Origin: Candidatus Saccharimonadota bacterium
GTDB lineage: Bacteria > Patescibacteriota > Gracilibacteria > UBA1369 > 2-02-FULL-48-14
Assembly: GCA_041661045.1 (NCBI GenBank)
Contig: JBAZVE010000001.1
Span: forward strand, 1 to 32,000
Length of the DNA stretch: 32,000 bases
Direction: 5' to 3'
Below are positions 5,000 through 25,356 of the stretch, in pieces. The notes beneath the pieces are model-generated. The model was not told where the DNA came from and made no database searches. It worked only from the letters and a program-made list of their open reading frames with translations. The position numbers were made by a program, and so were the translations under genes. Position 1 is the first letter of the stretch; each line of letters opens with the position of its first letter.

Positions 5000-5497
5000 C
5001 TACAAGCACCTTTTGAGTAGATACTCTATAGCTTCTGTCGGATTTTTTAGCCTCTCTATAGGATTACAAACAGATTCACTGAGGCTTATCTCTCCATTTT
5101 CTGCTCTTTCAGTTAATGTCCAACCAGGAATACTGGCTCGAGAGTCTTTTACCCTCCATCCCTCTTCTATCACAGCATATCTAGGATGTAGCAATCCCCT
5201 TGCAATTAAGAAATCACAAGCCTCTTGAGCTGTTGTAAATCGAAGATCCGGCAGTTCTTCACGAGGAATAGCGGCAACTAGTATTCTTCTAAATGCTTCC
5301 TTATCCCATTCGCCATAGATATACTCCATCCGGCTAAGGTAAGTAGTTTCTTCTTCATTCACCCCTGCACGCATTGCAGCCTCCCATTCCTGATAATCAG
5401 CATCTAATCCACTTGCTCTTAAACCTCTTACATACTCCAATACTAATGACCATGTTCTTGGCATTTCTGGTTGTATATCCTCCCTTGGTACTCTCAT
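5000..5497 (-). CDS. Hypothetical protein (165 aa), no family recognised
   Basis: The ORF starts at an ATG. It has a near-consensus promoter just upstream and hairpins downstream. I recognise no motif in it. Confidence 0.55.
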   Translation of the reverse strand: MRVPREDIQPEMPRTWSLVLEYVRGLRASGLDADYQEWEAAMRAGVNEEETTYLSRMEYIYGEWDKEAFRRILVAAIPREELPDLRFTTAQEACDFLIARGLLHPRYAVIEEGWRVKDSRASIPGWTLTERAENGEISLSESVCNPIERLKNPTEAIEYLLKRCL

Positions 5498-5520
5498 AAT
5501 AATTGAATTAAAACATATAG

Positions 5521-5549
5521 AGTATAGCCATAAAATATGCTCTTGTCAA
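5521..5549 (-). promoter_or_regulatory. Sigma70-type promoter for the 165-aa ORF
   Basis: The minus strand reads TTGACA (5549-5544), a 17-nt spacer, then TATACT (5526-5521). The -10 element lies 23 nt upstream of the ATG at 5497. Confidence 0.55.
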
Positions 5550-5553
5550 ATTC

Positions 5554-5579
5554 AAAGGCCCTCGCGAAGAGGGTCTTTT
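5554..5579 (-). terminator. Intrinsic terminator hairpin downstream of the small membrane-protein gene
   Basis: The sequence is aaaGGCCCTCgcgaaGAGGGTCtttt, a 7-bp stem (one G-U pair) with a 5-nt loop. It has A/T runs on both sides. Confidence 0.55.
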
Positions 5580-5657
5580 ATCTGAGATGGCACTCATTCC
5601 AAGGATCGTCTTCATTATTATAGCTCCGCCACGGAACAAAGAAAAGTACCTGTTCTT

Positions 5658-5745
5658 GTGCGCCTAAACAGCAAGCAAAGAAGGTATTTTGAAAATAAAA
5701 TGGCTTATTTAAGCCATAAATTGAGGCAAAATCTGTGCGCGCGCA
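5658..5745. repeat. Repeat copy B, with an internal insertion of about 45 nt
   Basis: It reads gtgcgcctaaacagcaagcaaagaa, then an insert containing the hairpin tggcttatttaagcca, then aaaatctgtgcgcgcgca. It is bracketed by the 9-bp inverted repeat cgcctaaac (5661-5669) / gtttaggcg (5751-5759). Confidence 0.6.
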
Positions 5746-5783
5746 CTGGCGTTTAGGCGAACAAGGTGCATGTGTGACTGGGT

Positions 5784-6098
5784 TTACTTTTTGAAGTTTA
5801 TGCTTATGTGTACTTTTGATTTTATATACAAGATGGTTTTAATCACAAGATAAGCCATCACTATGTTGAATAATGGCAGAAGCACCATAAACAATATTAT
5901 TTGTGCAACCGGTAAATCCCCAATTTTCAATAAATATAAAAATCCAAAATAATGCGCGTTTAGCATGGTAAAGAGAAGTAGTGCACCTCTCCCGCTACCA
6001 ACGATTTGCCACTGAATTAGGGTTAAAATAACTGTAATAACGAAATACAAAACTCCAATGATTATTGCCATCTTTAGTGTTTCCCTTTCGTTTTTCAT
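5784..6098 (-). CDS. Small hypothetical membrane protein (104 aa, about 3 TM helices)
   Basis: It has three hydrophobic stretches (IIIGVLYFVITVILTLI, ALLLFTMLNAHYFGFLYLL, IILFMVLLPLFNIVMAYLVI). The DNA is very AT-rich. Confidence 0.55.
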   Translation of the reverse strand: MKNERETLKMAIIIGVLYFVITVILTLIQWQIVGSGRGALLLFTMLNAHYFGFLYLLKIGDLPVAQIILFMVLLPLFNIVMAYLVIKTILYIKSKVHISINFKK

Positions 6099-6147
6099 AA
6101 TCTTAAGGTTTATCTTTGCCGTCTTGATAAAGGGGTTCTGTTAAAAA

Positions 6148-7284
6148 TTGGATACTTCGAACCATAGCATGCCTGCTCAATCTGTTGCAACCTGGAATAA
6201 TGTCTTGAAAAAGGGTATAATAGTGGGGATGGCAGCAAAAGACTTAAATAAAGATAAAATAGTAGACCAAGGAGAGGAGGGCGTTCCTGAACTTGTGAGT
6301 CGTTATTGGCGTTTAGCCAGGAGTGCGGCCAAAGGAGAAATTGCCAATGGCAATGCCGCATTTGAAATGGCTGAGATTTTGCATGTATTGTTTGCTAACT
6401 CGGGGCTCCATCCATTCCTTTCGGTCCGAAGTCACGATCCAGCGGACTGTGACCTCGCCATGAGTAATATCTCTATATTGGCAGAAAATCTATGGTTGGC
6501 AGCTCAGCTTAAATTCGGTGAGGAAAACCGTTTTTATCCTCCGGATTACGCTGAAGCGCGAGACCAACTTGTGGATGGACAAACTCAAAAACTTGAAATC
6601 AAAGAGACTGAAAAAGCTGGCCAAGGACTTCATGCAAGAGAAGCCATAAAAGAGGGAGAAATTGTATTTGTTTGTTCAGGGAGTCGAAGGATGTTGACTA
6701 CTCCGTATGAGTCTACCGAATTGATTGAAGTGCCTGATATTAAGGCAAAAAGCACTCGATTACGACGATTTTTTTATGAAAATCCCAACGAGCATCACCT
6801 TGTAAGTCCACGCAATCCGGACTCGATCTATCCCAATGCGATCTGTATCGATCAAGAAGGAATGGAAGCTTTGATCGGGCTACGATTGGAGAATCCGAAT
6901 ATCAAAGTCAACATTTGGCTGGATCCCTTTGAAGCATGTCCTTTACGATTTTTAAATCATTCTTGTGAGCCCAATGTAAAACGACAGGCGGATGGGGTGA
7001 CCTTTGTGGCGATGAGATCCATTCCACCCGGCGAGCAGTTGACTTGTGACTACTCGACCTTGGAGGTGAACCCGGATTGGAAAATGAAGTGTCAATGTGG
7101 TCCCAAATGCAGAGGAACTATTGGGGGCATCCAGTCCTTGCCTGCAGAACTGCTGCAGCAGTATGGAACGGACCTTCCAGAGTTTATGTTGGATTTATTT
7201 AAGGAATCACACCCTGAGCTGAATCGCGATGTCCTTGACCGAATAGAATTGACTCGATGGGGTATGGGACTGATTCGGCTTTAA
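6148..7284 (+). CDS. SET-domain protein (putative protein lysine methyltransferase) with post-SET Cys cluster
   Basis: The SET N-region is GQGLHAREAIKEGEIV. Other motifs are RFLNHSCEPN, GEQLTCDYS and the post-SET CQCGPKC. The track start is TTG 6148; an alternative ATG lies at 6169. Confidence 0.8.
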   Translation: MDTSNHSMPAQSVATWNNVLKKGIIVGMAAKDLNKDKIVDQGEEGVPELVSRYWRLARSAAKGEIANGNAAFEMAEILHVLFANSGLHPFLSVRSHDPADCDLAMSNISILAENLWLAAQLKFGEENRFYPPDYAEARDQLVDGQTQKLEIKETEKAGQGLHAREAIKEGEIVFVCSGSRRMLTTPYESTELIEVPDIKAKSTRLRRFFYENPNEHHLVSPRNPDSIYPNAICIDQEGMEALIGLRLENPNIKVNIWLDPFEACPLRFLNHSCEPNVKRQADGVTFVAMRSIPPGEQLTCDYSTLEVNPDWKMKCQCGPKCRGTIGGIQSLPAELLQQYGTDLPEFMLDLFKESHPELNRDVLDRIELTRWGMGLIRL

Positions 7285-9441: not shown

Positions 9442-11577
9442 TCACTTCACGGTGACGGTTTTGCTGAATGCGTCGACGATGCCGGTGCTTTCGGTGATTT
9501 CTAGGGTGATGGTGTAGGTGCCCGGGGCATCGTAAGTGTGGCTGCCGGGTTTGCGGTCAAAGCTGATTTCTCCATCCCCAAAGTCCCATTCGTAGTTGTC
9601 GATGGTCCCCTGAGAACAACTGGGGTCCACCACCACAATGAGGAATCCTGTGCCGGTGCTTTCATTCACGGTGAAACAAGCGGTGAGGGCAACGGGACGA
9701 ACCACGATTTGCATTTCGGTGGAATCCCTGGCTCCGTCGGCTCCCACCACCGTGAGCACGGCGGTGTAAGTTCCCACGGCGTTGTATTTATAAGTCACCG
9801 TTGCATCGCCAATATACAAGTCTGCTCCATCTCCAAAATCAATTTCGTACGACACGATGCTGCCTTCTTTATATGAGGAGCCGGAAGCGTCAAAACTCAC
9901 TGTAAGCGGGACCTCTCCATTGCTGGGAGTGGCTTCCAGTTTTGCGGTGATGCCCTGAGCGGTGACTTCAATATTTACGGTGCTTTCCTTCGTGTTCCCG
10001 GCTGCATCGGTCACCACGAGCATGGCTTCGTATGAACCCACTTCTCCATAAGTATTTGAAACCTTGCTTCCACTGTCGTCCACAATCCCATCTCCATCAA
10101 AATCCCATTCGTAGTCCACGATGTCATCCTCCGGATCGGTGGAACCGGAAGCATCAAAGCCCACCGTGAGTGGCACGGGACCGGAGACCACTCCGGAGAC
10201 CGCCGCAGGACTGGTTTTTATGGACGCGCTTGGAGGCGTGCCTTCTTCCACCACTTCGAGGTCTAAAATGCTTTCATCCGCATTGCCGTCGGCGTCCAAA
10301 ACGGTGAGCACCACTTGGTAGCTTCCGACTTCTTCATAAGTGTGTTTTACACTACGGCCTTCCAATTTTGTGCCATCGCCCATGTCCCACTTGAACTTCA
10401 CGATTTTTTGTTCGGTGGCTTGAGATAAGTTCCCATCAAACTCATAGCGTTCATCCGTAAAATAGACCGCACCTTCTCCAAGAGGAGGCGTGATCACCGC
10501 TCTTAAACCTCCCACACTGCCCGCCTCGATCACTTGGCTGGTTGTGGCGGATTCTCCATTGTTGTCGGTCACACGCAAAGACACTTCATAATTTCCTTCC
10601 TGAGTGAATTCGTAGGATACCACTTCTCCAACCGCATCATCGTAGCGGCCGTCTTCATCAAAATCCCATTCGTAAGAAACAATTTCTCCGTCGGGATCAA
10701 AAGAACTTCCCGCATCAAAATTCACGGTGAGCGGAACTTCCCCACTGCTGGGATTGGCCACAAAGGATGCGGCGGTGAGTTCATTTTCTATCACCACTTC
10801 GGTGCTGGTTTCATAATCGAATCGAGCCCCGCTTTTCAGATCCATGTATTCCACGGTGAGCACCACGGTGTAGATCCCGTTGCCCTGTGCTTTTTGCTTA
10901 TATTCATGGGTCACTTTTTGTCCGTTCGCGATGCTGCCATCTCCAAAATCCCAGGTGTAAGAAAGAATGCTGTACACGGAAGTTTCTATTGGAATCAAGC
11001 TTGCATCAAAACTGATGCTGATGGGTGAAGTGAGTCCAATGGTGTTTTCCGGCACCGTTACGATGGGAGAACCATATCGCAACTCTTCCACCAAACGAGG
11101 CCCTAAAAACCATATTCCCACGAGCCACAAAACGCCGGTGAGCAGGAATCCGATTCCAAATTTTAAAGCCATGCGAGAGAACTTTTTCTTTTGTTCCAGC
11201 TCTTCTTTTTTTACGAGCAAAGAACGGATGAGCCCATATAAGGCGGCGAGCATCGTTGCAATGACCACGGCTCCCATTTGAATGTTGAAGAGTGTGTAGA
11301 AAAATTTATTGAAGCCCGCTTGAGAAATGGGAAGATATTTAAAGAGGATGAACTCCGTGTTTGCCAAAAAGGCGGCCCACAGCACCGTGAAGACCAAGAG
11401 CAGAACAAAAACTACGGATGAAACAATGCCGAGTCTTTTGAGCATTCGCTTGCGCTTGATTTTGGGATCAAGGGCGGGTGCGGCGGGAGCTGCAGGGGCT
11501 GGGCTTGGCGCCTCCGGAGCAGGCACTGCCGGGATCGGCTCTGACGACGGTGTGGGGGCTTGAGAAAATTCTTCCAT
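9442..11577 (-). CDS. Membrane protein: Pro/Ala-rich N-terminus, 3 TM helices, 6 PKD repeats
   Basis: There are six W/I-D-F/M-G/D-D-G cores (YTWDFGDGS, YEWDFDEDG, FKWDMGDGT, YEWDFDGDG, YEIDFGDGA, YEWDFGDGE). ATG 11577 (MEEFSQ) lies 1 nt after the upstream stop; the track start at 11658 would overlap the upstream gene. Confidence 0.85.
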   Translation of the reverse strand: MEEFSQAPTPSSEPIPAVPAPEAPSPAPAAPAAPALDPKIKRKRMLKRLGIVSSVVFVLLLVFTVLWAAFLANTEFILFKYLPISQAGFNKFFYTLFNIQMGAVVIATMLAALYGLIRSLLVKKEELEQKKKFSRMALKFGIGFLLTGVLWLVGIWFLGPRLVEELRYGSPIVTVPENTIGLTSPISISFDASLIPIETSVYSILSYTWDFGDGSIANGQKVTHEYKQKAQGNGIYTVVLTVEYMDLKSGARFDYETSTEVVIENELTAASFVANPSSGEVPLTVNFDAGSSFDPDGEIVSYEWDFDEDGRYDDAVGEVVSYEFTQEGNYEVSLRVTDNNGESATTSQVIEAGSVGGLRAVITPPLGEGAVYFTDERYEFDGNLSQATEQKIVKFKWDMGDGTKLEGRSVKHTYEEVGSYQVVLTVLDADGNADESILDLEVVEEGTPPSASIKTSPAAVSGVVSGPVPLTVGFDASGSTDPEDDIVDYEWDFDGDGIVDDSGSKVSNTYGEVGSYEAMLVVTDAAGNTKESTVNIEVTAQGITAKLEATPSNGEVPLTVSFDASGSSYKEGSIVSYEIDFGDGADLYIGDATVTYKYNAVGTYTAVLTVVGADGARDSTEMQIVVRPVALTACFTVNESTGTGFLIVVVDPSCSQGTIDNYEWDFGDGEISFDRKPGSHTYDAPGTYTITLEITESTGIVDAFSKTVTVK

Positions 11578-11578
11578 A

Positions 11579-14500
11579 TTAATGCTTGGTGATTTTAGTG
11601 AGCTGAGCTTTGAATATGAAGCTGATCGCGGCGAGTGCCGTGATGAGGGCGGAAACAATGAGCACCATCATTTCGCTTGGCGTGGCATTGAACAGATTAG
11701 CACCTCCCAAGGATCCTTCAAAGACCACTTGCAGGGTGGATATGTCTTTTTCTCCGGTGGCTTTGTCGTTTACGGTGAGCTTGACCACCACTTGACCGTA
11801 GGATTTATAAAAAGGTGTTTTCCAAGATCCTGCAGAATCGTCCACAAAATCCCTGTCATTGTCTCTCACACCATCGTTGTCGGTGTCGTAGAAAATATTT
11901 TTATCCAAGACGAATTCCAGGTCTTCAGAACCTCCCTCGGCTCCATAATAGAATGAGACTTCATCCCCATCTTTCTCCAAGACCACTTGGTTCAAACTGT
12001 TGGGTTGTGGTGTGCTGGTGAGGAGGGCTTGTACTGAATCCAGCGGGCTTGAGACGACCACGGTTTGTACGGTGGAATCGGTTTTTCCAAAACTGTCTTC
12101 CACAATCAACTTCACTTGGTAGGAACCGTAATCGGCATATTCAAAGGAGGGGTTTTTCGTGGTGGCATCCGTGTCATTTTCCGGGTCTGTATCTCCGTTG
12201 GTGTCCGCGGTGAGATTGAAGTCCCATGAAGCACTGAGGAATTCCGCTCCCTGAGCGGTGTCAAAGGAGGTCTCATTTTTGAAATCCACCATTTTATCGT
12301 TCACGATGGTGGAGAATTTGGCTTCGGGCGCTGTGCTTTCGCTCACATTGACCGTACGCGTTACGGTGTCTGCCTGGCCCGTGCTGTCCACAATGGTGAG
12401 ACGAGCTTCATAAGTGCCCAAGGCGGGATAGGTGTAGATTGGATTCTCTTCAAAAGAATCGGTGTCGTCGTCGGGGCTTCCGTTTCCATTGCTGTCCACG
12501 GAAAGATCAAAATCCCAATACTGCCCTTCCAATTTTGCGTCGTTCTCAAAATCAATGATGGAATTGTTTTGGAAACTCACGGTGGTCCCCGTTATTTCGG
12601 TGAGGAAGGCGGCTTCGGGCGGTGCGGAAAGTGCGTCCACAAAAATAGTGAGGGTCTCCGAAGGGTCGGTGGCACCCGCATCGTCTTCCACTTTCAATTG
12701 CACTTCAATTCCCTCCGGGTGCACTTGAGAGAACTCGTATTCAAAAGAGGCTTCTTCCGTGGGTTCGTTGTTCCAGAATCCATCGCCTTCAATGTCCCAC
12801 CAATAGTTCACAATTTCTCCATCCGTGTCGTAAGAAGTGCTGGAGAAACTGACCGGTTCCCCCACATAAACTGAGGTGCGATCCACAGAGATCCCCGCCA
12901 CCGGAGTTTCGTTGGGCCCATTGGTGACTTCCAGGGTTGGGATGGATGCGCTGTCCAAAAAGTCGGAACTTGAGACCTCGTTGCTGTCGTCATCGGTGAC
13001 TTCCACTGCAAATCCATATTCCAGAGTTTCTCCCGTTTTTCCTTTTGTATCGATGGTCATTTGGAACTCCGTGCTTTGAGCAATGATTTCCCCGAGTGCT
13101 TCCGCGGTGTCGTTGAGATCGTAATACCACGCCTTGATGAAGGTGATTTCTCCGTCTTCATCAAACGCGTCCACGCTAATGTCCACTTTGAGAGGCGTTT
13201 CCAATTTATCTCCTTCCGGGGTCACCGTGATGCCGCGAATCACCGGGTCCATGCCCTCAATCAGAATGTTGACGGAAGTTTGATCCATTACGGTGCTGTC
13301 GTCTTCATCACGAACGGTGAGCGTTACCGTAAAAGTCCGCTGTTCGGAGAACGAGTGGGTGACCGTGCTTTGAGAGGAGGTGACTCCGTCTCCAAAATTC
13401 CAGCTGTAATCCAAATTATCCGTACTTCCATCCACATTAATAGATTCCGTCGCATCAAAAGAAAATTTGGTCTTTATACTTCCTTTGAGTGAGCTCCCCG
13501 TTCCAATATCTTCTTCCGCTCCAATCGCAATCACGGCAATGGGAGCATCACCAGCTCCAATGTAGACGCGTTGCTTGATACTGTTTTCGTCATCCTCATC
13601 ATTTAAAGCGGTGAGTACCACTTCAAACACTCCGGCGGTTTCGTACACATGCGTCAAAATCGTTTCTCCTCGAGTGATGGTGTCGGTGTAGTCGCTGGAG
13701 CCGTCTCCGTAATCGATTTCAAAAGCGGTGGCCGTGGCACTGATCGCCGTGAATTCCACTTCCGCTTGGCCGTTTGCATCCAAATGTCTGGCGGTTTCTC
13801 CTTGGATCTCCATGCCAATGTCCAGCGTGGAATCGATGGTGATTGTACCCACTGCCGTATCACTCTTTTTGAGCTCGGCGGAATGTTGGTCATAAACAGT
13901 GAGGCTCACACCGTAATCTCCCTTTTTAAGGAATTGCACCGTGAGTTCTTTGTTCTCGTTTTCTGCGCTGAGGATGGTGTAATCCTCCCCTTCCGTGCCT
14001 TCAAACTCCCATTCAAATGTGAGAGTGTCTCCTTCATCCGGATCATAACTTTCCCCGGCATCAAAGAAGAGTGTTGCAGGCTGCGTTTGGCTTGGGACCG
14101 TGTATTCATAAGAAGCCACGGGTGCCGTGGATTCCACCAAAAAGCTGAGTGAAGCGGTGTCGGTTTTCCCACTTCCATCCGAAACGATGAGTTGCATGGT
14201 GTAGACGCCGGGTTCTTCCAAAGCAACCGCAATGACTTCCCTGTTGTTCTCTTCTAAAGGTACTGCCGTGCCCTCCTTTGTGAGGGTCCAGGAAGTGCTT
14301 ACGATTTTTCCAATGTCGGTGGTGGAGCCGGAGGCGTCGAATTCAAAAATGGTGCCCACGGTGCCGGAGCTGGGGCTCATGGAGAACCGGGCGGCCGGCG
14401 AGGCCACGAATAAAGTAAAATATTTACGGTCTTTTACTCCGGTGTCGTCTGTGACGGTGAGAGAAAGGTTGTACGAGCCGGCCTCTCCATATACATGGGT

Positions 14501-16564
14501 CACCGTGCTGCCTCCTTCTTGTCCGTAAGATCCGGATGCGGTTTCACTGTCTCCAAATTCCCATTCGTAATACACAATGCCTCCCTCCGCTCCGGTGTTG
14601 CCATCTCCATCGGTGGTTTCACTGGCATCAAATGTGATGCCTCCTTCCGCTTCGGACATCGTTACTTTATAAGTTCTTTGATCAATGGCCGGAAAGGATC
14701 TGAAATCGGCGATCACGCTCGCGGCCTCTGTCCCCGCTTGTGCCGTGAGCACGATCATGGATTTGGAAGGTTCCACTTCCACCGTTACCATTGACACTCC
14801 CGCGGCAATATTTTCATCTTGGCTGCGAACGCGCACTCGTATTCGGTAGGTCCCCGGTTCATTGTAGGTTGCGCTCACCGCGTCTCCTTCCGTGTTTTCG
14901 GAAGTCACGGCGGCGGTGTTCAAAGTGCCGGAGCTTTCAAAGTTTCCATCTCCATTCAAGTCCCATTCAATTTGATCGTCTTCCACCGTTTTTCCACTGG
15001 GGTCTTCCGTGCCAAGCACATTGAACCGTACGATCAAAGGATCGTTGCCGGAAGTGGCGGAGGCCTTGAGGCGCACCTTTACAAATTCCAGATTCTCCAC
15101 CAAGTTGTGGAGGTCATTCATGGCGGTCACAATTTCTTGCGCCGTTTTTGCGTTCACCGTTTCCAAAGAACTGTCCAGCAGTTCATCGGCCGCGTTGAAG
15201 GCGTCCAAAACTTCCGTGAGTTTGGATCCGGAATCAAAGCCCTGTCCTTCGGTATCAAAAAGATCTTTCATCTCTCTAAATCGTTCCAGCAAGGCTCCCA
15301 CTTCTTCAATATAATCCCCTTCGGCAGCCGTTTGAATGGCCACAATATAGGAACACACTTTGTCATCGATCTCACGAATATCCATATCGTAGACCGTGTA
15401 GCCCAAGGCATAGGTATAGAGTTCCGTGCTCTCATCATAATCTCTTGTGTTGCAGGCATCGGTGGTGGTGACCCCTCGATCGAGTTCCTGAATGATTTCT
15501 TCCACGGAGGCGGCGGAAGCTTTTGGAATGAGACGAGCAAAGAATCGATCCAAGTAGCTGGTTTGAGTGCCGCTTCGCAAATAGTTATAAAGCGCCTGAG
15601 CGGCTTCGTAAGTTCCACTCAAGGAATCCACTTCTTGTTGAATGTCTTGGATTCCCTCACGCAGCATGTCGATGTAATCTTCCACATCGTCCTCATCAAT
15701 AAGAGTGTATTGATCAGCATAATCGCTATCGGTGTTTTGAGCCCATTCGAGCACATGCTCTAAAAGCCCATTGATGGTCCAATCCGTCTCTTCCACATCA
15801 ATAATGATGGGCATTTCCACCGACTGCATGTACGCCACTTCCTGGCTCACTGTGAGTAAAGTTTGGTAGGAGTCCAAATATTCCGCGCTGATTTCCTCAA
15901 TTTCTTCCAAAACAAACTCCGTATCAAAAGAAGCTCCGGTTTCCGTAATGGTGGTTCCATCCACTTCTCCCCCGCTTCCATCTCCGGAACCGTCACCCCC
16001 TCCTGCGCGGAGCAAAGTGTTCACCATGGCGAAGGACCCCAGAATGATTAAAATTCCAATAGCGGCATAGCTGATGGCCTTTTTTCCGGTGGAGGCCATG
16101 TCTTCATCTCCACGGCTGAGCACATACATGACTCCTCCGTAGACTACAATCACCACGGCGATCAATCCTAAAAAGGACAAGGCGTAGTTCACAATGGTCT
16201 GAATAAATTCTCGCGCACTCTTGTTTTCCGTGAGCTGGGGTGCGTAACCGGCTTCATCCGGCGCTTCAAGCTCTCCTTCCAATTCCGTAAAATCCACTAT
16301 CTCGTCGCTGGTGTCACAGCCCAAGGCTCCGGCCAAACTTTCGTCCAATTCCGCACATTGCGATTCGATGATGTCGCCCTGTGACGCATCGGTATTGGTT
16401 TCACCGGTTTCCACGCTAAGGTCAAAGATCTCATCCAAATCATCCACTAAATCTGCGGAAGCCGGTAGCGCCCATAGGCTATTTATCCCTAAAATAAGAG
16501 AGAAAAGCAGCGGAGTGATGCGGCGGCGAAGGTTCATATGTTGGAGGGCCTGGCGTTTTTCCAT
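11579..16564 (-). CDS. Giant surface protein (about 1661 aa): signal peptide, pilin-like TM hairpin, acidic helical region, about 11 PKD/Ig-like repeats, C-terminal TM anchor
   Basis: The signal-like N-terminus is LLFSLILGINSLWALPASA. The hairpin is LGLIAVVIVVYGGVMYVLSRGDEDMASTGKKAISYAAIGILIILGSFAMV. PKD cores include YEWEFGD, FEIDYGDGS, YSWNFGDGV and YWWDIEGDG. The C-terminus is MMVLIVSALITALAAISFIF plus KAQLTKITKH. The start is uncertain: ATG 16564 or ATG 16537. Confidence 0.85.
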   Translation of the reverse strand: MEKRQALQHMNLRRRITPLLFSLILGINSLWALPASADLVDDLDEIFDLSVETGETNTDASQGDIIESQCAELDESLAGALGCDTSDEIVDFTELEGELEAPDEAGYAPQLTENKSAREFIQTIVNYALSFLGLIAVVIVVYGGVMYVLSRGDEDMASTGKKAISYAAIGILIILGSFAMVNTLLRAGGGDGSGDGSGGEVDGTTITETGASFDTEFVLEEIEEISAEYLDSYQTLLTVSQEVAYMQSVEMPIIIDVEETDWTINGLLEHVLEWAQNTDSDYADQYTLIDEDDVEDYIDMLREGIQDIQQEVDSLSGTYEAAQALYNYLRSGTQTSYLDRFFARLIPKASAASVEEIIQELDRGVTTTDACNTRDYDESTELYTYALGYTVYDMDIREIDDKVCSYIVAIQTAAEGDYIEEVGALLERFREMKDLFDTEGQGFDSGSKLTEVLDAFNAADELLDSSLETVNAKTAQEIVTAMNDLHNLVENLEFVKVRLKASATSGNDPLIVRFNVLGTEDPSGKTVEDDQIEWDLNGDGNFESSGTLNTAAVTSENTEGDAVSATYNEPGTYRIRVRVRSQDENIAAGVSMVTVEVEPSKSMIVLTAQAGTEAASVIADFRSFPAIDQRTYKVTMSEAEGGITFDASETTDGDGNTGAEGGIVYYEWEFGDSETASGSYGQEGGSTVTHVYGEAGSYNLSLTVTDDTGVKDRKYFTLFVASPAARFSMSPSSGTVGTIFEFDASGSTTDIGKIVSTSWTLTKEGTAVPLEENNREVIAVALEEPGVYTMQLIVSDGSGKTDTASLSFLVESTAPVASYEYTVPSQTQPATLFFDAGESYDPDEGDTLTFEWEFEGTEGEDYTILSAENENKELTVQFLKKGDYGVSLTVYDQHSAELKKSDTAVGTITIDSTLDIGMEIQGETARHLDANGQAEVEFTAISATATAFEIDYGDGSSDYTDTITRGETILTHVYETAGVFEVVLTALNDEDDENSIKQRVYIGAGDAPIAVIAIGAEEDIGTGSSLKGSIKTKFSFDATESINVDGSTDNLDYSWNFGDGVTSSQSTVTHSFSEQRTFTVTLTVRDEDDSTVMDQTSVNILIEGMDPVIRGITVTPEGDKLETPLKVDISVDAFDEDGEITFIKAWYYDLNDTAEALGEIIAQSTEFQMTIDTKGKTGETLEYGFAVEVTDDDSNEVSSSDFLDSASIPTLEVTNGPNETPVAGISVDRTSVYVGEPVSFSSTSYDTDGEIVNYWWDIEGDGFWNNEPTEEASFEYEFSQVHPEGIEVQLKVEDDAGATDPSETLTIFVDALSAPPEAAFLTEITGTTVSFQNNSIIDFENDAKLEGQYWDFDLSVDSNGNGSPDDDTDSFEENPIYTYPALGTYEARLTIVDSTGQADTVTRTVNVSESTAPEAKFSTIVNDKMVDFKNETSFDTAQGAEFLSASWDFNLTADTNGDTDPENDTDATTKNPSFEYADYGSYQVKLIVEDSFGKTDSTVQTVVVSSPLDSVQALLTSTPQPNSLNQVVLEKDGDEVSFYYGAEGGSEDLEFVLDKNIFYDTDNDGVRDNDRDFVDDSAGSWKTPFYKSYGQVVVKLTVNDKATGEKDISTLQVVFEGSLGGANLFNATPSEMMVLIVSALITALAAISFIFKAQLTKITKH

Positions 16565-16580
16565 GGTATTATAACGGTTT

Positions 16581-17549
16581 TTATCTGGACGCATCAAGCT
16601 CAACCACTGTGTTCACAATGGCGAAGGCGGCGAGGGCTAAAATGATGCCCACGGCAGCACCCATGATGATCTTTTTAGATTTGGCCACATTGTCTTCGTT
16701 CTGCACTCCCAAGACATAGAGGTAACCCGCATATAAGAGGAAGGCGAAGGAAAGTGTGCCCAAGGTTCCCGCAATAAAGTTGGTGACTTGTACAAAAAGA
16801 AGTTTGGCTTCTTCCACTCCAAGCGACTTCCCTTGATTTTGGAAAAGAATTTCTTTGACCACAAACTCTGAGATTCCTATTACAAAGAGTCCCACCAAAG
16901 CCCAAGTGATTTGTTTTTTGGCCTTACCCACTTGATCTTCACTCGCCGAGCCTCCCACAAAACGCATGCCCGCCATGATGAGAACCGAGACGGCAATGGA
17001 CCCAATTAAGATTTGAATCAAGCTGTAAATTCCTCGAAAGAGGGTACTGGCTTGCCGTCCAAACTCTTGAGCCCCGGACTCTCCTCCCCTTAAAATTCCT
17101 CCATCCGCTCCAAAGAAAACCTCCACCAAAGAGTCGGACATAAAAATGATGACTAAGCCCTGCAGACCATAGCTTATAAAATTCTTGGATTGAGAAAGCA
17201 CTTCTTCACTTTCTTTTCCCGCAGTGACCATTCGCACGCCCATGATCACAATAAAGAGGATGGTGACCGGGGTTATGATGAGTTTGAAGAAATCCAAAAA
17301 GCGTTGGATGGCGGCCACAATGACATTGGCGCCCTCCCCTTGTTCCGAGAATGTCGGGAAGCTGATACCTCCGGAGGGCTCTTCATCACTGCTGGTGGGG
17401 GCAGTGCCGTCCTCCACCTGAGTGCTTTCCTCGCTTACATTTTGCTGAAAATCGTCAATGATGCTTCTAAAGTCCAAAGCATCGGCCACCGCGGCACTTG
17501 CGGTGAGCAGTTGTATACTTGTGAAAATGAGGAAGAGGTATTTTTTCAT
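16581..17549 (-). CDS. Membrane protein with signal peptide and three tandem TrbC/VirB2-like (T4SS_pilin-like) hairpin modules
   Basis: The signal peptide is MKKYLFLIFTSIQLLTASAAVA. It has three TM-loop-TM units, with loops AGKESEEVLSQSKN, GGSASEDQVGKAKKQ and GVQNEDNVAKSKKI. Confidence 0.75.
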   Translation of the reverse strand: MKKYLFLIFTSIQLLTASAAVADALDFRSIIDDFQQNVSEESTQVEDGTAPTSSDEEPSGGISFPTFSEQGEGANVIVAAIQRFLDFFKLIITPVTILFIVIMGVRMVTAGKESEEVLSQSKNFISYGLQGLVIIFMSDSLVEVFFGADGGILRGGESGAQEFGRQASTLFRGIYSLIQILIGSIAVSVLIMAGMRFVGGSASEDQVGKAKKQITWALVGLFVIGISEFVVKEILFQNQGKSLGVEEAKLLFVQVTNFIAGTLGTLSFAFLLYAGYLYVLGVQNEDNVAKSKKIIMGAAVGIILALAAFAIVNTVVELDASR

Positions 17550-17552
17550 GAT

Positions 17553-18482
17553 TTAGAATTTTCCTGCAATGATGGTGGAAACAAGGGCAAAGGCTCCATA
17601 GATCACAATGACGCCTATGACAGAGTTCATGATGATCTTTTTCGCAAGTCCGCTGCGTTCTTCATCCCCTCCCGCCGTGATATACAAAAGTCCTCCCGCC
17701 ACAATACCCAACATCATGATGGGTCCCACAAAAGAGACTACGATGTTGGTGACGGCCACCATTTGCTGCACTCCTTCGTTTTGATCCAGCACCACAATGG
17801 TTTTATCGGCCGATTGATTGAACTCCGCCACATAAAACACACGGCGAATCACCATGTCGGAGACCATGACCATCAAGAGACCCGCGGCGGAAAGTGCCAT
17901 GCTTTTCTTTGCATTGCCCACTTCTTCTTCGTTGTCTCCGGAAATCACCATTACGGCCCCGCTTCGAATAAAGAAGAGCGCTGCCAGTCCTCCGAGTAAA
18001 TATTTCACAAAAGTAATGATGAGGCGCGTGGTGTTGTCAAAAAGTTCCACTCGCTCCACCAGCTTTTCGGGGTCGGAGAGGAAGTTCCCTTCGCGGTAAT
18101 CGAAAACTTCCGCGATGGGGCCCGCAATACTGATCATCAAAAAGCCCACCAAACCATAGACCAGGGATTTCCTTTGGGTCTTGGCGGTCTCTTCGTTGTC
18201 TCCGGAAATCACCATGGTGAATCCTGAAACGACGATGAAAAGCAAGGCTACCGCCCCCACAATAATCCGTAGATTTCTGGCGACCGGCCCCAAAAGATTT
18301 TCGAATTTTTCGAGGGCCGTGTCCCCTTCCGGCGCGGGTAAGTCCAAATTTTCGGCGGAGGGTAAGGGCAAAAAGTCAGCCAAAGCGTGTGAAGCAGAAA
18401 ACACGAATATCCCCAAGAATAAGGCTAAAAGCAGACCTCCCATATGGATTTTTCCCAATCTTTTCATCCAAAGCTTTGCCAT
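17553..18482 (-). CDS. Membrane protein with signal peptide and three tandem TrbC/VirB2-like (T4SS_pilin-like) hairpin modules (paralog of 16581-17549)
   Basis: The signal peptide is GGLLLALFLGIFVFSASHALA. It has three TM-loop-TM units, with loops SGDNEETAKTQRKS, SGDNEEEVGNAKKS and AGGDEERSGLAKKI. Confidence 0.75.
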   Translation of the reverse strand: MAKLWMKRLGKIHMGGLLLALFLGIFVFSASHALADFLPLPSAENLDLPAPEGDTALEKFENLLGPVARNLRIIVGAVALLFIVVSGFTMVISGDNEETAKTQRKSLVYGLVGFLMISIAGPIAEVFDYREGNFLSDPEKLVERVELFDNTTRLIITFVKYLLGGLAALFFIRSGAVMVISGDNEEEVGNAKKSMALSAAGLLMVMVSDMVIRRVFYVAEFNQSADKTIVVLDQNEGVQQMVAVTNIVVSFVGPIMMLGIVAGGLLYITAGGDEERSGLAKKIIMNSVIGVIVIYGAFALVSTIIAGKF

Positions 18483-18502: not shown

Positions 18503-18511
18503 ATTATACCA
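18503..18511 (-). promoter_or_regulatory. Extended -10 element (TGgTATAAT) upstream of the pilin-like/PKD operon
   Basis: The minus strand reads tggTATAAT, with the hexamer 20 nt upstream of the ATG at 18482. No good -35 element is present (TTTTCC at 17-nt spacing). Confidence 0.4.
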
Positions 18512-18534
18512 GAAAAACAGGTTTTGGAAAAGAC

Positions 18535-19395: not shown

Positions 19396-19464
19396 AGTTG
19401 ATGTTGCTTGCGCCAGTTTTTAATAGGCACTGAAGTGCCTGGCCTCCGCTCCGCTGCGGCTTGT

Positions 19465-20091
19465 ATGCAGAAACTCACCCTCTTCTCGGTTCTGCTTTCC
19501 ATCTCCGTGATTCTTATTGTGGGAGATATTGTGGTGCACGATTATTTGGCCACTCCCCCTCCTGTGGAAGGCACACCAGAAAATCCTGTTGAGGAATTGA
19601 ACCCCGATGAAGAAGCTTCGGTGGATTTGGCGGATGAAGCGCTCCCTATTGTTTTGGAGTCCACCCTGAGTTCCGGACTCTTTACTCAAGCCGGCTTTTT
19701 AAATCCCGTCCTTAAAGACACACTCTTTTCCGGTTTGGTTTTCCAGTTTATATCTTTTGCAGATCAAGAAACGGCCACCGTCTACCAATGGAATGTTTTC
19801 GATGGTGAACAATTTATTGGTTCAATATATGAAATCAAGTACCCCACGGAGACGGGAAGTTTCCAGGGTTACCTGGCCCTTCGTGAACGAGCCATGAGCC
19901 TCACCGACTTGGGGTCCGTGAATGAAGTGAACAATTATGGGGATGCTTCTTTTTACTTCAATCATAAGACTAAAATGAAGACGGTTCATGTGATTCTTCG
20001 CACCGGATCCGATGTCTATGGCTTTGAATACGCGCAAACTTATCACGAAAACATGAAAAATGTGTTTGACAGCCTCAGTCCTCTTCTGTAG
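19465..20091 (+). CDS. Hypothetical N-terminally anchored protein inserted between nusG and rplK
   Basis: It begins MQKLTLFSVLLSISVILIVGDIVV (a TM anchor) and is followed by an acidic linker. I recognise no family. ATG 19465 is preferred over the track start at 19408. Confidence 0.5.
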   Translation: MQKLTLFSVLLSISVILIVGDIVVHDYLATPPPVEGTPENPVEELNPDEEASVDLADEALPIVLESTLSSGLFTQAGFLNPVLKDTLFSGLVFQFISFADQETATVYQWNVFDGEQFIGSIYEIKYPTETGSFQGYLALRERAMSLTDLGSVNEVNNYGDASFYFNHKTKMKTVHVILRTGSDVYGFEYAQTYHENMKNVFDSLSPLL

Positions 20092-21944: not shown

Positions 21945-22376
21945 ATGTTGAAAGTTCGAATCCAAAGAGTCGATAAAGGGCTTCCACTGCCTGTTTATGA
22001 GACGCAAGGCAGTGTGGGGTTTGATTTGTTGGCGCGGGAAACGGTGTGTGTGGAGCCGGGACGGATTGAGCTTATTCCCGCCAATGCGATTGTGGAGGTT
22101 CCCGAGGGTTATATGTTGATGGTGGCCTCCCGCAGCAGCACCCCAAAAAAGAAAGGGCTCACTCCCCCGCATGGATTCGGCGTAATCGATCGGGATTACT
22201 GTGGTCCTCAAGATGAGATCAAAATTCAGGTTTATAATTTTTCAGATGCAGCGGTGACCGTGGAACGGGGTGAAAAGATCGCCCAAGGAGTTTTTGTGCG
22301 TGTGGATCGCTTTGAATTTGAGGAGGTGGATAGCATCCGCGAAGACAGCCGCGGCGGGTTTGGGAGTACGGGGTGA
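21945..22376 (+). CDS. dut: dUTP diphosphatase
   Basis: Motifs are GSVGFDL, SRSS, GVIDRDY and C-terminal RGGFGSTG. It ends with TGA. Confidence 0.9.
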   Translation: MLKVRIQRVDKGLPLPVYETQGSVGFDLLARETVCVEPGRIELIPANAIVEVPEGYMLMVASRSSTPKKKGLTPPHGFGVIDRDYCGPQDEIKIQVYNFSDAAVTVERGEKIAQGVFVRVDRFEFEEVDSIREDSRGGFGSTG

Positions 22377-22999
22377 AAACTAATAAGAAAATTATGCTGA
22401 TTACACTTTACGGAATCAATAATATTGGGAAAAGCACGCAGGCTTTGCGGCTGGTGGAACGGCTGAGGGCGGCGGGGTGGGATGCGGTGTATTGCAAGTA
22501 TCCGGTTTATGAAATGGAGCCCACGGGGCGTTATTTGAATGAGTTTTTAAGGAGTGGTGGTGCGCAGACTATCAGTGAGGAGGAATTACAAATGTGGTTC
22601 ACTTTGAATCGTTATCAATTTCAGCCCACGCTGCAGAAGTGGCTCGCGGAGGGGAAAATTGTGGTAGCGGAGGATTATACGGGGACCGGCATTGCGTGGG
22701 GTACGGTGAAGGGAGCCAAAACAGAGTGGCTGGAGACCTTGAATGAAGGACTGGTGAAAGAAGATCTCGCCCTTTTACTTGATGGGGATCGGTTTACCAA
22801 GGCACAAGAAGAGGGGCATTTGCATGAAGCGAATGAAGCCTTTATGAAACGGGCGCGACAGATCCATTTGGAGTTGGGAGAAAAATATGGCTGGATTCAT
22901 GTTCCCGTTGAACCCGGTATCGAAAAAACGGAACTCTTGATTTGGGAGGAGGTGCAGTCTAGAATAGGATCTCCAACAACCCATGGCACTAATCCTTGA
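22373..22999 (+). CDS. tmk: Thymidylate kinase-like nucleotide kinase
   Basis: The P-loop is YGINNIGKST and the size is about 200 aa. Its GTG start overlaps the dut stop (GTGA); an alternative ATG lies at 22394. The sequence diverges from canonical Tmk. Confidence 0.6.
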   Translation: MKTNKKIMLITLYGINNIGKSTQALRLVERLRAAGWDAVYCKYPVYEMEPTGRYLNEFLRSGGAQTISEEELQMWFTLNRYQFQPTLQKWLAEGKIVVAEDYTGTGIAWGTVKGAKTEWLETLNEGLVKEDLALLLDGDRFTKAQEEGHLHEANEAFMKRARQIHLELGEKYGWIHVPVEPGIEKTELLIWEEVQSRIGSPTTHGTNP

Positions 23000-23840
23000 T
23001 GGTCGTACGGTTTCCGATTCTCTGCTCGCTGAGGTGAGCCAAGAAGTGGAACGCCTAAAAGCCCAAGGAGTTTTTACAAAGTTGGTGGTTGTGGTGGTGG
23101 GAGAAGATCCCGCCAGCCAGGTTTATGTTGGGAAAAAAGAGGAGGCTTGTAAACGAGTCGGCATGCTGAGTGAACGAGTGGCTTTGCCCGCAGAGAGCAC
23201 TCAAGAAGAGGTGCTCAAGAAAATCGATGAACTCAATAAAGACCCCAGTGTAACAGGGATGATTGTGCAATTGCCACTCCCCTCCCACATGGATGCTCCG
23301 GTGGTGATCAAGGCCATTGATCCTTACAAAGATGTGGATGGCTTTCATGCCTACAATGTGGGGAAAATGTTTTTGAGTAAAGATTTTGAAGACCTGGCTT
23401 CTTGTACGCCAAAAGGGATCACTAAGATTTTGGATTTTTACGGGATTGATGTGAAAGGAATGGATTGCACGGTGATTGGCCGCAGCAATATTGTGGGAAA
23501 GCCGATGGTTGCCATGCTCATCAATCGGGATGCCACGGTTTCCTGCTGTCATAGTCGAACAAAAAATTTACTCAAGTATACGCAGGAGGCGGATTTGATT
23601 GTGGTTGCGGTTGGAAAGCCGAAATTTTTGACCGCAGATATGGTTAAAGAAGGGGCTATTGTGGTGGATGTGGGCATGCACCGGATGGAAGATGGAAAAC
23701 TCTGTGGAGATGCGGATTTGGAAGGGATGAAAGACAAGGTTTCTGCGTATACTCCCGTCCCCGGTGGCGTGGGTCCCATGACGGTGGCTTGTCTGCTCAT
23801 GAACACCGTGACAGCTGCTAAAAAACAAGCTAAACTCTAA
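22983..23840 (+). CDS. folD: Bifunctional methylenetetrahydrofolate dehydrogenase/methenyltetrahydrofolate cyclohydrolase
   Basis: Motifs are VGEDPASQVYVGKK, QLPLP, GRSNIVGKPM and PVPGGVGPMT. Confidence 0.9.
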   Translation: MALILDGRTVSDSLLAEVSQEVERLKAQGVFTKLVVVVVGEDPASQVYVGKKEEACKRVGMLSERVALPAESTQEEVLKKIDELNKDPSVTGMIVQLPLPSHMDAPVVIKAIDPYKDVDGFHAYNVGKMFLSKDFEDLASCTPKGITKILDFYGIDVKGMDCTVIGRSNIVGKPMVAMLINRDATVSCCHSRTKNLLKYTQEADLIVVAVGKPKFLTADMVKEGAIVVDVGMHRMEDGKLCGDADLEGMKDKVSAYTPVPGGVGPMTVACLLMNTVTAAKKQAKL

Positions 23841-23844
23841 ACCT

Positions 23845-25356
23845 ATGTGCGGAATCATCGGCATCCATTCCAAGTCCCCGGTCGCTCAAGAGCTCTATGA
23901 TGGGCTCATGATGCTTCAACACCGTGGACAAGATGCGGCGGGAATGGTGAGCTTTGATGGACGGCAACTCCACATTAAAAAAGGAGATGGCCTTGCGAGT
24001 GATGTTTTTAAAGCCGAGGATTTTTTACGATTGCGAGGCAATACGGGTATGGCGCATGTGCGCTACCCCACCGCCGGGACTTATGACAGTGCCGAGGCTC
24101 AGCCTTTTTATGTGAATGCCCCCTTTGGAATCGCGCTGATTCACAATGGAAACTTAACCAATACCAAAGAGCTTCGTGAAGAAGTGGTGAAAAACAACCA
24201 CCGTCATCTCAATACTTTTTCAGATTCAGAAGTGCTTTTGAATGTCCTCGCGTATGAAATTGAATCTTTGGGTACTCGGGATTTGACTCCCGAGGGACTC
24301 TTTAAGGCTATGGAAAAAGTTTATGGGCGGGTGAAGGGAGCTTATGCGGTTATTGCCCTCATTGCGGGCTATGGCCTCTTGGCTTTCCGCGACCCCAACG
24401 CCATCCGCCCTCTTGTGATGGGCACCCGAAAAGATGATCTTTTCCCCGATACCGTTTTTGCCTCCGAAAGTGTGGCCTTGGATGTGCTCGGTTATGAACT
24501 GGTGCGAGATGTCAAACCGGGAGAAGCTGTTTTTGTGGATTTGAAGGGTCAGGTGCACAGCAAGATCTGTGCCAAAAATCCTGTCTACAATCCTTGTATC
24601 TTTGAATATGTGTACTTTGCACGACCGGATTCTTTGATTGATGATATTTCTGTTTATAAGACTCGACTTCGCATGGGGGAAAAATTGGCAAAGAAGATCA
24701 AAGCCGCCAATATTGAGATCGATGTGGTGATTCCCGTGCCCAGCACCTCTCGTCACTCTGCGGCCCCTTTGGCGTATGAATTGGGCGTGAAGTACCGCGA
24801 AGGATTGGTCAAGAACCGCTATGTGGGTCGTACTTTTATTATGCCTGGGCAGAACAAACGACAAACTTCGATTCGTCGCAAGCTCAACCCCATCCGACTT
24901 GAGATTGAAGGAAAAAATGTTTTACTGGTGGACGACTCCATCGTGCGAGGGAATACTTCCAGAAAAATCGTTCAAATGGTGAGAGAAATGGGTGCTAAGA
25001 AAGTCTATTTTGCTTCGTGCGCCGCGCCGCTTCGTCATCCGTGTGTGTATGGAATCGATATGCCATCTCGTAAAGAATTTGTGGCCAACAATTTAACCGT
25101 TGAAGAAACGGCCCGCTCTTTGGGAGCGGATGGACTTTTCTACCAAGAATTGGAAGACTTGGCGGAGGCGGTACGAGAAGGAAATCCCACCATCGACCGA
25201 TTTTGTATGGCGTGTTTTGACGGGAAGTACCCCACCCCCGATGTCACGGAGGAAGTCTTGCGAGCCGCGGAAGAAAGCCGCAGTGGTGTATACAAAGAAA
25301 TTCGCAAGGATCTCCAAGATCCCGAAGAGCAAGAAAATCAAATCCCCCTTATTTAA
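23845..25356 (+). CDS. purF: Amidophosphoribosyltransferase
   Basis: It has the MCGIIGI Ntn nucleophile, RGQDAAG and the PRTase motif VLLVDDSIVRGNTS. Confidence 0.95.
   Translation: MCGIIGIHSKSPVAQELYDGLMMLQHRGQDAAGMVSFDGRQLHIKKGDGLASDVFKAEDFLRLRGNTGMAHVRYPTAGTYDSAEAQPFYVNAPFGIALIHNGNLTNTKELREEVVKNNHRHLNTFSDSEVLLNVLAYEIESLGTRDLTPEGLFKAMEKVYGRVKGAYAVIALIAGYGLLAFRDPNAIRPLVMGTRKDDLFPDTVFASESVALDVLGYELVRDVKPGEAVFVDLKGQVHSKICAKNPVYNPCIFEYVYFARPDSLIDDISVYKTRLRMGEKLAKKIKAANIEIDVVIPVPSTSRHSAAPLAYELGVKYREGLVKNRYVGRTFIMPGQNKRQTSIRRKLNPIRLEIEGKNVLLVDDSIVRGNTSRKIVQMVREMGAKKVYFASCAAPLRHPCVYGIDMPSRKEFVANNLTVEETARSLGADGLFYQELEDLAEAVREGNPTIDRFCMACFDGKYPTPDVTEEVLRAAEESRSGVYKEIRKDLQDPEEQENQIPLI

Follow-up and report, generated by a model that had tools for sequence, protein, structure and literature searches.

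We analysed a 32,000-nt stretch of genomic DNA (assembly GCA_041661045.1, contig JBAZVE010000001.1, positions 1 to 32,000 of the forward strand; the whole of this stretch is called the window below) from a member of the Peribacteria/Peregrinibacteria (Patescibacteria; the Peregrinibacteria are tiny and probably depend on a host), a placement that agrees with the relatives of protein A, which are labelled Peribacteria or Peregrinibacteria. The window holds a minus-strand operon of four genes, A-B-C-D, that encodes two proteins built from fused pilin-type hairpins (A and B), a giant protein in which one such hairpin is joined to an array of PKD domains (C), and a membrane protein with six PKD domains (D). 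We conclude that this operon is the peregrinibacterial form of the VirB2-like pilin array of Patescibacteria. We put the chance at about even (roughly 0.5) that its products make up a heteromeric pilin-based fibre, or the base of one, on which PKD arrays are displayed, and that a VirB4 system with its genes elsewhere in the genome assembles it.

The evidence begins with the hairpins of A, B and C. The family PF18895 (T4SS_pilin, for type IV secretion system, T4SS) matches three stretches of A (E 3e-24, 85.2 bits), three stretches of B (E 4e-21, 75.2 bits) and one stretch of C (aa 116-176, E 8e-8, 32.6 bits), and all three proteins lie above the gathering score of 26.6 bits. The initial annotation of this DNA had read seven transmembrane (TM)-loop-TM hairpins of the TrbC/VirB2 type from the letters alone, and the profile recovers all seven, distributed 3 + 3 + 1 over A, B and C; the pilin similarity that the annotation had put up for checking is significant against PF18895, with no match among solved structures. 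The seven modules align almost without gaps at 15-33% identity, and what is invariant among them is one glycine in each helix and one glutamate in the loop, usually followed by a pair of lysines. The longer loop motif first proposed, G-x-x-E-(E/D)-x3-4-(A/S)-K-K, is thus only loosely kept.

The N-termini of A, B and C were identified as Sec-type signal peptides by hydropathy and a motif scan (aa 1-35 in A, with the boundary ...HALA/DF, and aa 1-24 in B), and they are followed by pairs of hydrophobic helices joined by a short charged loop, which is the topology of VirB2. Signal peptides of this type place the ends of each hairpin outside and the charged loop in the cytoplasm. An AlphaFold2 model of A, built on a 63-sequence alignment, consists of a signal helix and three long helical hairpins (local-confidence score pLDDT 67.7; predicted template-modelling score pTM 0.48). 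A GenBank entry with 100% identity to protein A bears the name 'MAG: pilin [Candidatus Gracilibacteria bacterium]', and matching proteins are called 'pilin' and 'TrbC/VirB2 family protein' there. Of 63 A orthologues tested, every one matches PF18895 and 40 match PF04956 (TrbC/VirB2) at E<=0.01, with a best E of 3.5e-7; protein A of the window itself scores 15.1 bits against PF04956 (E 0.027), below the gathering score of 27.9 bits. On this sequence evidence we regard the assignment of the hairpins of A, B and C to the PF18895/TrbC-VirB2 superfamily as solid. The PF04956 similarity holds at superfamily level only. The canonical conjugative-pilin class is marked by single-module size and by linkage to T4SS genes, and since the proteins show neither, they are not established members of it.

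The hairpins are not interchangeable copies. B is a paralogue of A position by position (A1~B1, A2~B2 and A3~B3~C1), so the triple architecture is older than the duplication that separated A from B. In a scan with one genome per species (60 loci), in which open reading frames (ORFs) were labelled with a module hidden Markov model (HMM) and the window proteins, the order A (3 modules)-B (3)-C (1 + ~1600 aa)-D (~700-790 aa) is kept in about 55 species-level genomes, always divergent from (secE)-nusG-hyp-rplK-rplA-dut-tmk-folD-purF-purD, while the identity of A to the window protein falls to 29%. Fifty-two of these genomes have complete A-C and were used for an orthology test in which the best match of each module was sought in the other genomes. 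For all seven modules the same-position module was the best match in 52/52 genomes, and from this we conclude that seven distinct modules have been kept since the common ancestor. Module C1 is the most conserved, with a mean pairwise identity of 59%. In the close clade the median identity to the window proteins is 61% for A, 59% for B, 54% for the PKD part of C (over full collinear coverage) and 59% for the PKD part of D, and the housekeeping neighbours give 61% (Lyase_1-family lyase), 61% (FtsJ) and 69% (Tmk). The operon proteins are therefore about as conserved as the neighbouring housekeeping enzymes, which is not what fast-evolving, swappable adhesins would look like.

This result bears directly on a proposal already made for VirB2 arrays. 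A survey of 441 patescibacterial pilin arrays of 2-11 genes, whose members share about 25% identity, suggested that the pilins serve host-range or antigenic variation (PMC12102498), and the modules described here, at 15-33% identity, are as divergent as one might ask of variants that are used one at a time. We disfavour that explanation and consider it very improbable for this operon: the modules are covalently fused and hence made at the same time, every genome retains each of them as a stable orthologous group, their rate of evolution is about as low as that of housekeeping enzymes, and no repeats or switching elements were seen. Taken together, the fusions, the strict positional orthology and the housekeeping-like rates argue that the hairpins are used together in fixed proportion and not as alternatives.

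Fused hairpins of this kind are not confined to one lineage. When 1.84 billion representative proteins were searched exhaustively with a profile, 19,297 matched at E<=1e-3, 961 of them at E<=1e-10 or better and 115 at E<=1e-30. Of the 150 best representatives, 114 have three modules per protein, 18 have four, 11 have two (several of these short and possibly partial), four have six, two have seven and one has eight; proteins with 3-8 fused hairpins are common in metagenomes. The genomic context of five such proteins was examined (loci L065-L069). L065 and L068 each have, flanked by a sigma-70 gene and a Mur ligase gene, two four-module pilins (4+4 hairpins at L065:8753-12400, plus strand), then two further pilin genes that in L065 carry one module each, and then a PKD protein of 728-729 aa. 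In L066, RecO is followed by an eight-module pilin (L066:9925-12387, plus strand), a one-module pilin, a one-module pilin fused to PKD domains, and a 718-aa PKD protein. In L067 eight pilin genes form an array and one of them has seven modules (L067:10001-11821, plus strand), and no PKD protein was found in this array; in L069 a seven-module pilin is followed by an unknown 864-aa protein. The PKD protein of L065 is a collinear orthologue of D (32% identity over 693 aa, TM hairpin included), and so is that of L066 (35% identity over 550 aa). The coupling of pilins to a D-type protein with six PKD domains thus recurs in three unrelated chromosomal settings, and the covalent pilin-PKD fusion itself recurs in L066.

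The single chains with seven or eight hairpins have up to 16 predicted TM helices, and this raises the question of whether such proteins form a fibre at all. They might instead make a membrane ring or channel with the PKD proteins as an external collar, either as a functional replacement of the translocon subunit VirB6 or as a ring of hairpins like that of fused rotary-ATPase c-subunits. Chains of 4, 6, 7 or 8 hairpins in relatives do look more like polytopic membrane proteins than like pilins, and fused hairpin rings have a precedent in rotary ATPases. VirB6 homologues, moreover, went undetected in class Gracilibacteria (PMC12102498), which we take to cover the present lineage. We nevertheless judge a ring or channel to be quite unlikely, since the proteins resemble neither VirB6 nor any channel in sequence or fold, and the number of modules per operon varies (7-8, 10, 10-11 and 14), which argues against one fixed ring size.

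The second half of the operon supplies the PKD arrays. Scores against the PKD families (PF00801/PF18911) are above the gathering score for both proteins, at 213.9 bits for C (9-10 domains) and 288.7 bits for D (6 domains), and the total for C and D is 16-17, in keeping with the early count of about 17 PKD/Ig-like repeats. From its N-terminus, C consists of a signal peptide, an acidic segment, the pilin hairpin, a Gly/Asp linker, a helical region of about 300 aa, the PKD array and a C-terminal TM helix. An AlphaFold2 model of aa 105-520 is made of helices (pLDDT 50, from a 4-sequence alignment). The helical region, or 'stalk', has no significant family match and none in the PDB, and a homologue search with the stalk alone returned nothing, while one with the N-terminus of C gave only 3 matches. 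The tail of C reads ...GGANLFNATPSEM-TM-KAQLTKITKH, and its motif is kept in the close clade. The C-terminal anchor together with G-x-ANLFNATP is present in the Peribacteria clade only (L001-L025); C orthologues from deeper Peregrinibacteria end after the last PKD-like domain and have no anchor. The G-x-ANLFNATP motif (window 11600-11730, minus strand) resembles a sorting signal or an N-glycosylation sequon (N-A-T), and a basic tail follows the TM helix. We considered whether C is a sortase substrate and rejected this, since the motif before the TM helix is not LPXTG and is absent in the distant clade.

D begins with a cytoplasmic N-terminus rich in Pro and Ala, which is followed by three TM helices and six PKD domains. 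The hairpin formed by its second and third TM helices is not significantly pilin-like (E 0.2 against the module HMM; hhalign probability 63%, over the first helix only), and the L065 orthologue of D reaches E 7e-4 against the same HMM. It is possible, judging from these scores, that the D hairpin is a degenerate eighth pilin module. Both the recurrence of the pilin-PKD fusion and the co-conservation of D suggest that the PKD arrays are the outward-facing cargo of the hairpin structure.

We propose the following working model. What the data show is that seven distinct, non-interchangeable PF18895 modules come on three Sec-exported polypeptides, with C tethered by its own pilin module and D by a separate, possibly degenerate, hairpin. 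The modules most likely co-assemble in fixed proportions into one heteromeric structure rooted in the cytoplasmic membrane, where each hairpin would have both ends outward and its charged E-E...K-K loop in the cytoplasm, as in VirB2. The PKD arrays of C and D may then be carried outward, as a contact or adhesion surface, by a pilus-like fibre or the base of one. In what we see as the weakest step of the model, assembly or extraction of the hairpins would be driven by a patescibacterial VirB4-type T4SS encoded elsewhere in the genome, which would make the operon the extracellular part of a T4SS whose genes are dispersed.

Several observations weigh against this model. No VirB4, VirD4 or other T4SS gene was found within about 10 kb in any of 69 loci (1.05 Mb); among ORFs of at least 400 aa in these loci, a Walker A motif occurs only in an AAA_14 protein, two ABC transporters and incidental matches, and Pfam scans of the other large neighbours gave an fn3 protein, SLH-domain proteins, a kinase, Nramp and unknowns. 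A Foldseek comparison of the AlphaFold2 model of A with the PDB gave no match at E<=0.001 and returned generic helical proteins only, a module-profile search of PDB sequences gave no match, and at a pTM of 0.48 the packing between the hairpins of A is uncertain. To our knowledge, a filament of PF18895 proteins has never been seen. In the Peribacteria clade C carries a further TM anchor at its C-terminus, and D has an N-in multi-TM anchor; such anchors are more in line with proteins that stay in the membrane than with subunits drawn out into a fibre.

The first of these points has to be read against what is known of T4SS genes in the phylum. VirB4 is present in 2417/3035 Patescibacteria assemblies. 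VirB2-like pilins lie near virB4 in only 1135/1948 assemblies, and in class Gracilibacteria the TrsD and VirB3 homologues are mostly unlinked from virB4 (PMC12102498). Since patescibacterial pilins are often far from virB4 and T4SS genes are dispersed, distance from an ATPase is weak evidence for independence. The initial annotation had argued that, with no ATPase nearby, the modules belong to a separate apparatus, and that step is unsupported for this reason. It had also considered that homologous operons elsewhere might sit within complete T4SS loci, which would make the present one a displaced pilin cluster; an operon embedded in a T4SS locus was found in 0/69 loci. The only PF18895 pilins studied by experiment are those of the Saccharibacterium Southlakia, where a series of pilin genes lies inside the T4SS cluster and is essential (PMC10633639, PMC12857230). 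A requirement for epibiotic growth has been shown for Southlakia only, by transposon sequencing (PMC10633639), and no pilus has been demonstrated (PMC12857230).

The anchors and the lack of linkage would be expected if the operon encoded an envelope scaffold independent of any T4SS, with A and B, at six TM helices each, forming a permanent membrane platform that anchors C and D. The PKD proteins would then be a surface coat, a spacer or an S-layer-like attachment layer, with neither ATPase-driven extraction nor a pilus; in essence, the initial annotation had read the operon in this way. Linkage to T4SS genes is absent from all 69 loci, in three or more chromosomal contexts; the operon holds a core-genome position beside secE-nusG-rplKA and is conserved like housekeeping genes; C is anchored at both ends in the Peribacteria clade and D by its N-in multi-TM anchor; and SLH-domain genes occur in two loci. 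One of them, seen in one lineage, immediately precedes gene A on its strand and encodes three SLH domains (L048:8537-9793, plus strand), and the other, nearby in its locus, encodes an SLH + FlgD_ig protein (L058:199-2286, plus strand), which hints at a link to the cell wall or S-layer. The dispersal of T4SS genes in class Gracilibacteria takes much of the force from the missing linkage, however, the C-terminal anchor of C is absent from the deeper Peregrinibacteria clade, and the sole PF18895 pilins with experimental data sit in a T4SS cluster. We therefore hold a T4SS-independent scaffold to be possible, if on the unlikely side. A broader version, in which the fused hairpins are not T4SS pilins at all but building blocks of a self-contained, ATPase-independent envelope organelle, strikes us as doubtful when taken as a whole. 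Here a heteromeric tube or ring of hairpins inserted by Sec/YidC would carry the PKD arrays and contact host cells, perhaps for exchange of lipids or solutes; such an organelle would be widespread in Patescibacteria, and the 'pilin arrays' of T4SS clusters would be a secondary association.

We return to the model of a pilin-based fibre or base and to how the operon compares with known systems. The closest are the patescibacterial VirB2-like arrays (Southlakia epibionticum SEML1_0006-0019; Quinonero-Coronel et al. 2025), with which it shares PF18895, divergent paralogues side by side, a monoderm host-dependent lineage and a chromosomal rather than mobile location. Such an array consists of at least two divergent PF18895/PF04956 pilin genes in tandem or one gene apart (Wang 2023, Quinonero-Coronel 2025), and the present operon has three consecutive pilin-bearing genes with seven modules. 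Unlike in those arrays, however, two polypeptides here combine three paralogues each (3+3), a further module is joined to a stalk and PKD ectodomain of 1500 aa, and a conserved six-PKD membrane protein is co-encoded; and unlike the Southlakia array, the locus lies at a fixed core site beside secE-nusG and not near virB4 or a T4SS cluster. Tandem arrays of divergent VirB2-like pilins were thus already known in Patescibacteria (PMC10633639, PMC12857230), and the suggestion in the initial annotation of an undescribed adhesion or contact system has to be narrowed to the fused, multi-module, PKD-coupled form. That form appears to be undescribed: in the PF18895-citing literature found by search, and in the Peribacter genome paper (PMC4736985), we found no mention of the fusion, the pilin-anchored PKD giant, the six-PKD partner or the non-T4SS core site.

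Canonical conjugative pilins have a single module in about 70-120 aa, and their genes adjoin virB4/virB6 in the T4SS loci of diderms; some are cyclised, and they polymerise with phospholipid. The hairpin proteins resemble canonical VirB2/TrbC/TraA (PF04956) in their long signal peptide, two hydrophobic helices, short charged loop and weak but recurrent HMM similarity, and they differ in that three modules are present in each of A and B, C has a single one in 1661 aa, and the context of a T4SS locus is absent. The Mbov_0395 family (NF045849), found in integrative and conjugative elements (ICEs) of Mycoplasma, likewise belongs to a T4SS of wall-less or monoderm cells and is a pilin-like protein with two helices; its model is matched by each of A, B and C with E values of 1e-5 to 1e-8 (25-34 bits, below the cut-off of 40), and it differs in being single-module and ICE-encoded. 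Type IV pilus pilins were rejected, since the N-termini of A-D have no class III signal peptide and no prepilin-peptidase site (G, cut, then F/M-x-x-x-E); read directly, they show Sec-type signal peptides with A-x-A at their end. The design of C, in which a pilin-type membrane or assembly module carries a large adhesive ectodomain, is comparable to that of adhesins built into a fibre, although fold and machinery are unrelated. Archaeal rotary ATPases have fused multi-hairpin c/K subunits, and by analogy a tandem fusion of two-helix hairpins fixes stoichiometry within one assembly; no homology was detected to these subunits, whose function is different. The Pam pilus (PamA/PamB) is a CPR (candidate phyla radiation)-specific surface fibre of Ig-like domains assembled by Ig-fold donor-strand exchange, with homologues mainly in Saccharimonadia and Microgenomatia, and its description mentions neither T4SS nor PKD (bioRxiv 10.64898/2026.03.03.709456). 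C and D match PamR (NF058578) weakly, at 35 bits and 30.7 bits within generic PKD/FnIII-like repeats, and membership was rejected because these scores are far below the cut-off of 300; Pam is a different system.

The layout of the operon is given in Table 1. Its four genes are separated by gaps of 3, 16 and 1 nt, and independent public gene calls on identical DNA give the same four products at the same coordinates; together with the roughly 55 genomes that keep the order, these calls uphold the tight minus-strand unit first described. An extended -10 element had been placed ahead of A as well, and this has also stood up. It lies inside the 136-bp divergent intergenic region between A and secE, and in most orthologous loci a TGnTAnAAT element precedes gene A by about 26-33 nt. 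Promoter-like sites in the region as a whole are not in excess (8 found versus 8.7 expected from shuffled sequence), and it is the recurrence upstream of A orthologues that makes a real promoter likely here. No convincing terminator was found between the four genes, and A-B-C-D may be co-transcribed, as their spacing suggests. A second promoter-like site (TTGATG-18-TATAAT, 10/12 matches) lies at 16568-16597 on the minus strand, within the 3' end of gene B and just upstream of C, and may be an internal promoter or a chance match.

Table 1. Genes, modules and other features of the operon (window coordinates).
Feature	Position	Strand	Extent	Description
Gene A	17553-18482	minus	309 aa	Signal peptide and three PF18895 hairpins
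Gene B	16581-17549	minus	322 aa	Signal peptide and three PF18895 hairpins
Gene C	11579-16564	minus	1661 aa from ATG	One pilin hairpin and PKD array
Gene D	9442-11577	minus	711 aa	Three TM helices and six PKD domains
Module A1	18093..18311	minus	A aa 58-130	
Module A2	17829..18047	minus	A aa 146-218	
Module A3	17556..17777	minus	A aa 236-309	
Module B1	17100..17324	minus	B aa 76-150	
Module B2	16836..17060	minus	B aa 164-238	
Module B3	16584..16814	minus	B aa 246-322	
Module C1	15995..16225	minus	C aa 114-190	
C 'stalk'	15080..15952	minus	C aa 205-495	Predicted all-helical (AlphaFold2)
C PKD array	11705..15076	minus	C aa 497-1620	10 PKD domains and a probable 11th, Ig-like
C-terminal TM helix of C	11600..11686	minus	C aa 1627-1655	Preceded by G-x-ANLFNATP
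D TM-loop-TM hairpin	11089..11304	minus	D aa 92-163	TM2-TM3, loop KKEELEQKKK
D PKD array	9448..11052	minus	D aa 176-710	Six domains
Promoter-like site	18530..18503	minus		Extended -10, TTTCCA-16-TGgTATAAT, ~20 nt before ATG of A

The remaining recognisable genes of the window are all housekeeping genes: DUF1003, an HI0933-like flavoprotein, RsmE-like and GidB methyltransferases, a SET-domain protein, FtsJ, a Lyase_1-family lyase, NusG, L11, L1, dUTPase, Tmk, FolD, PurF, PurD and Maf. No T4SS ATPase was found in the 32-kb window, so the housekeeping flanks and missing ATPase of the first description hold over its whole length, and no tRNA or Rfam elements were found in it. An origin from a mobile element or ICE was rejected on account of the fixed core-genome site with housekeeping flanks. 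In one genome an extra 721-aa ORF that has no Pfam match lies between genes B and C (L053:2233-4398, plus strand).

Several features of the neighbourhood are of interest in their own right. Between nusG and rplK, at 19408-20091 (plus strand), is a 227-aa gene whose product matches no Pfam family and has a membrane anchor at its N-terminus. Practically all of the related loci (about 55) have this gene in that place, with 20-74% identity, and it is an unusual lineage-wide insertion in the secE-nusG-rplKA cluster, adjoining the pilin operon. The dut-tmk-folD-purF-purD cluster at 21945-26669 (plus strand) adjoins ribosomal protein genes, with its order kept in related loci, and the nucleotide-synthesis genes of the window agree with the capacity published for Peribacteria, which is unusual among CPR bacteria (PMC4736985). 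On the other side of the operon, the SET-domain protein (6148-7284, plus strand; PF00856, E 2e-15) is encoded upstream of ftsJ in what is a small bacterial genome. Next to it, positions 5000-6147 have a G+C content of 0.40, against about 0.48-0.52 nearby, and include an orphan 165-aa ORF (5000-5497, minus strand) that has no Pfam match.

For the biology of these bacteria, the fused and positionally fixed modules act as a natural 'Rosetta stone', arguing for co-assembly of the pilins into a heteromer and against their use as interchangeable antigenic variants. The extent of this machinery will be underestimated wherever a survey allows each protein a single VirB2 or is confined to the surroundings of virB4. 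The four proteins A-D are defined targets for AlphaFold-Multimer, cryo-electron tomography and metaproteomics, and the covalent pilin-PKD fusion C, together with the co-conserved D, provides concrete candidates for the outward-facing, host-contacting part.

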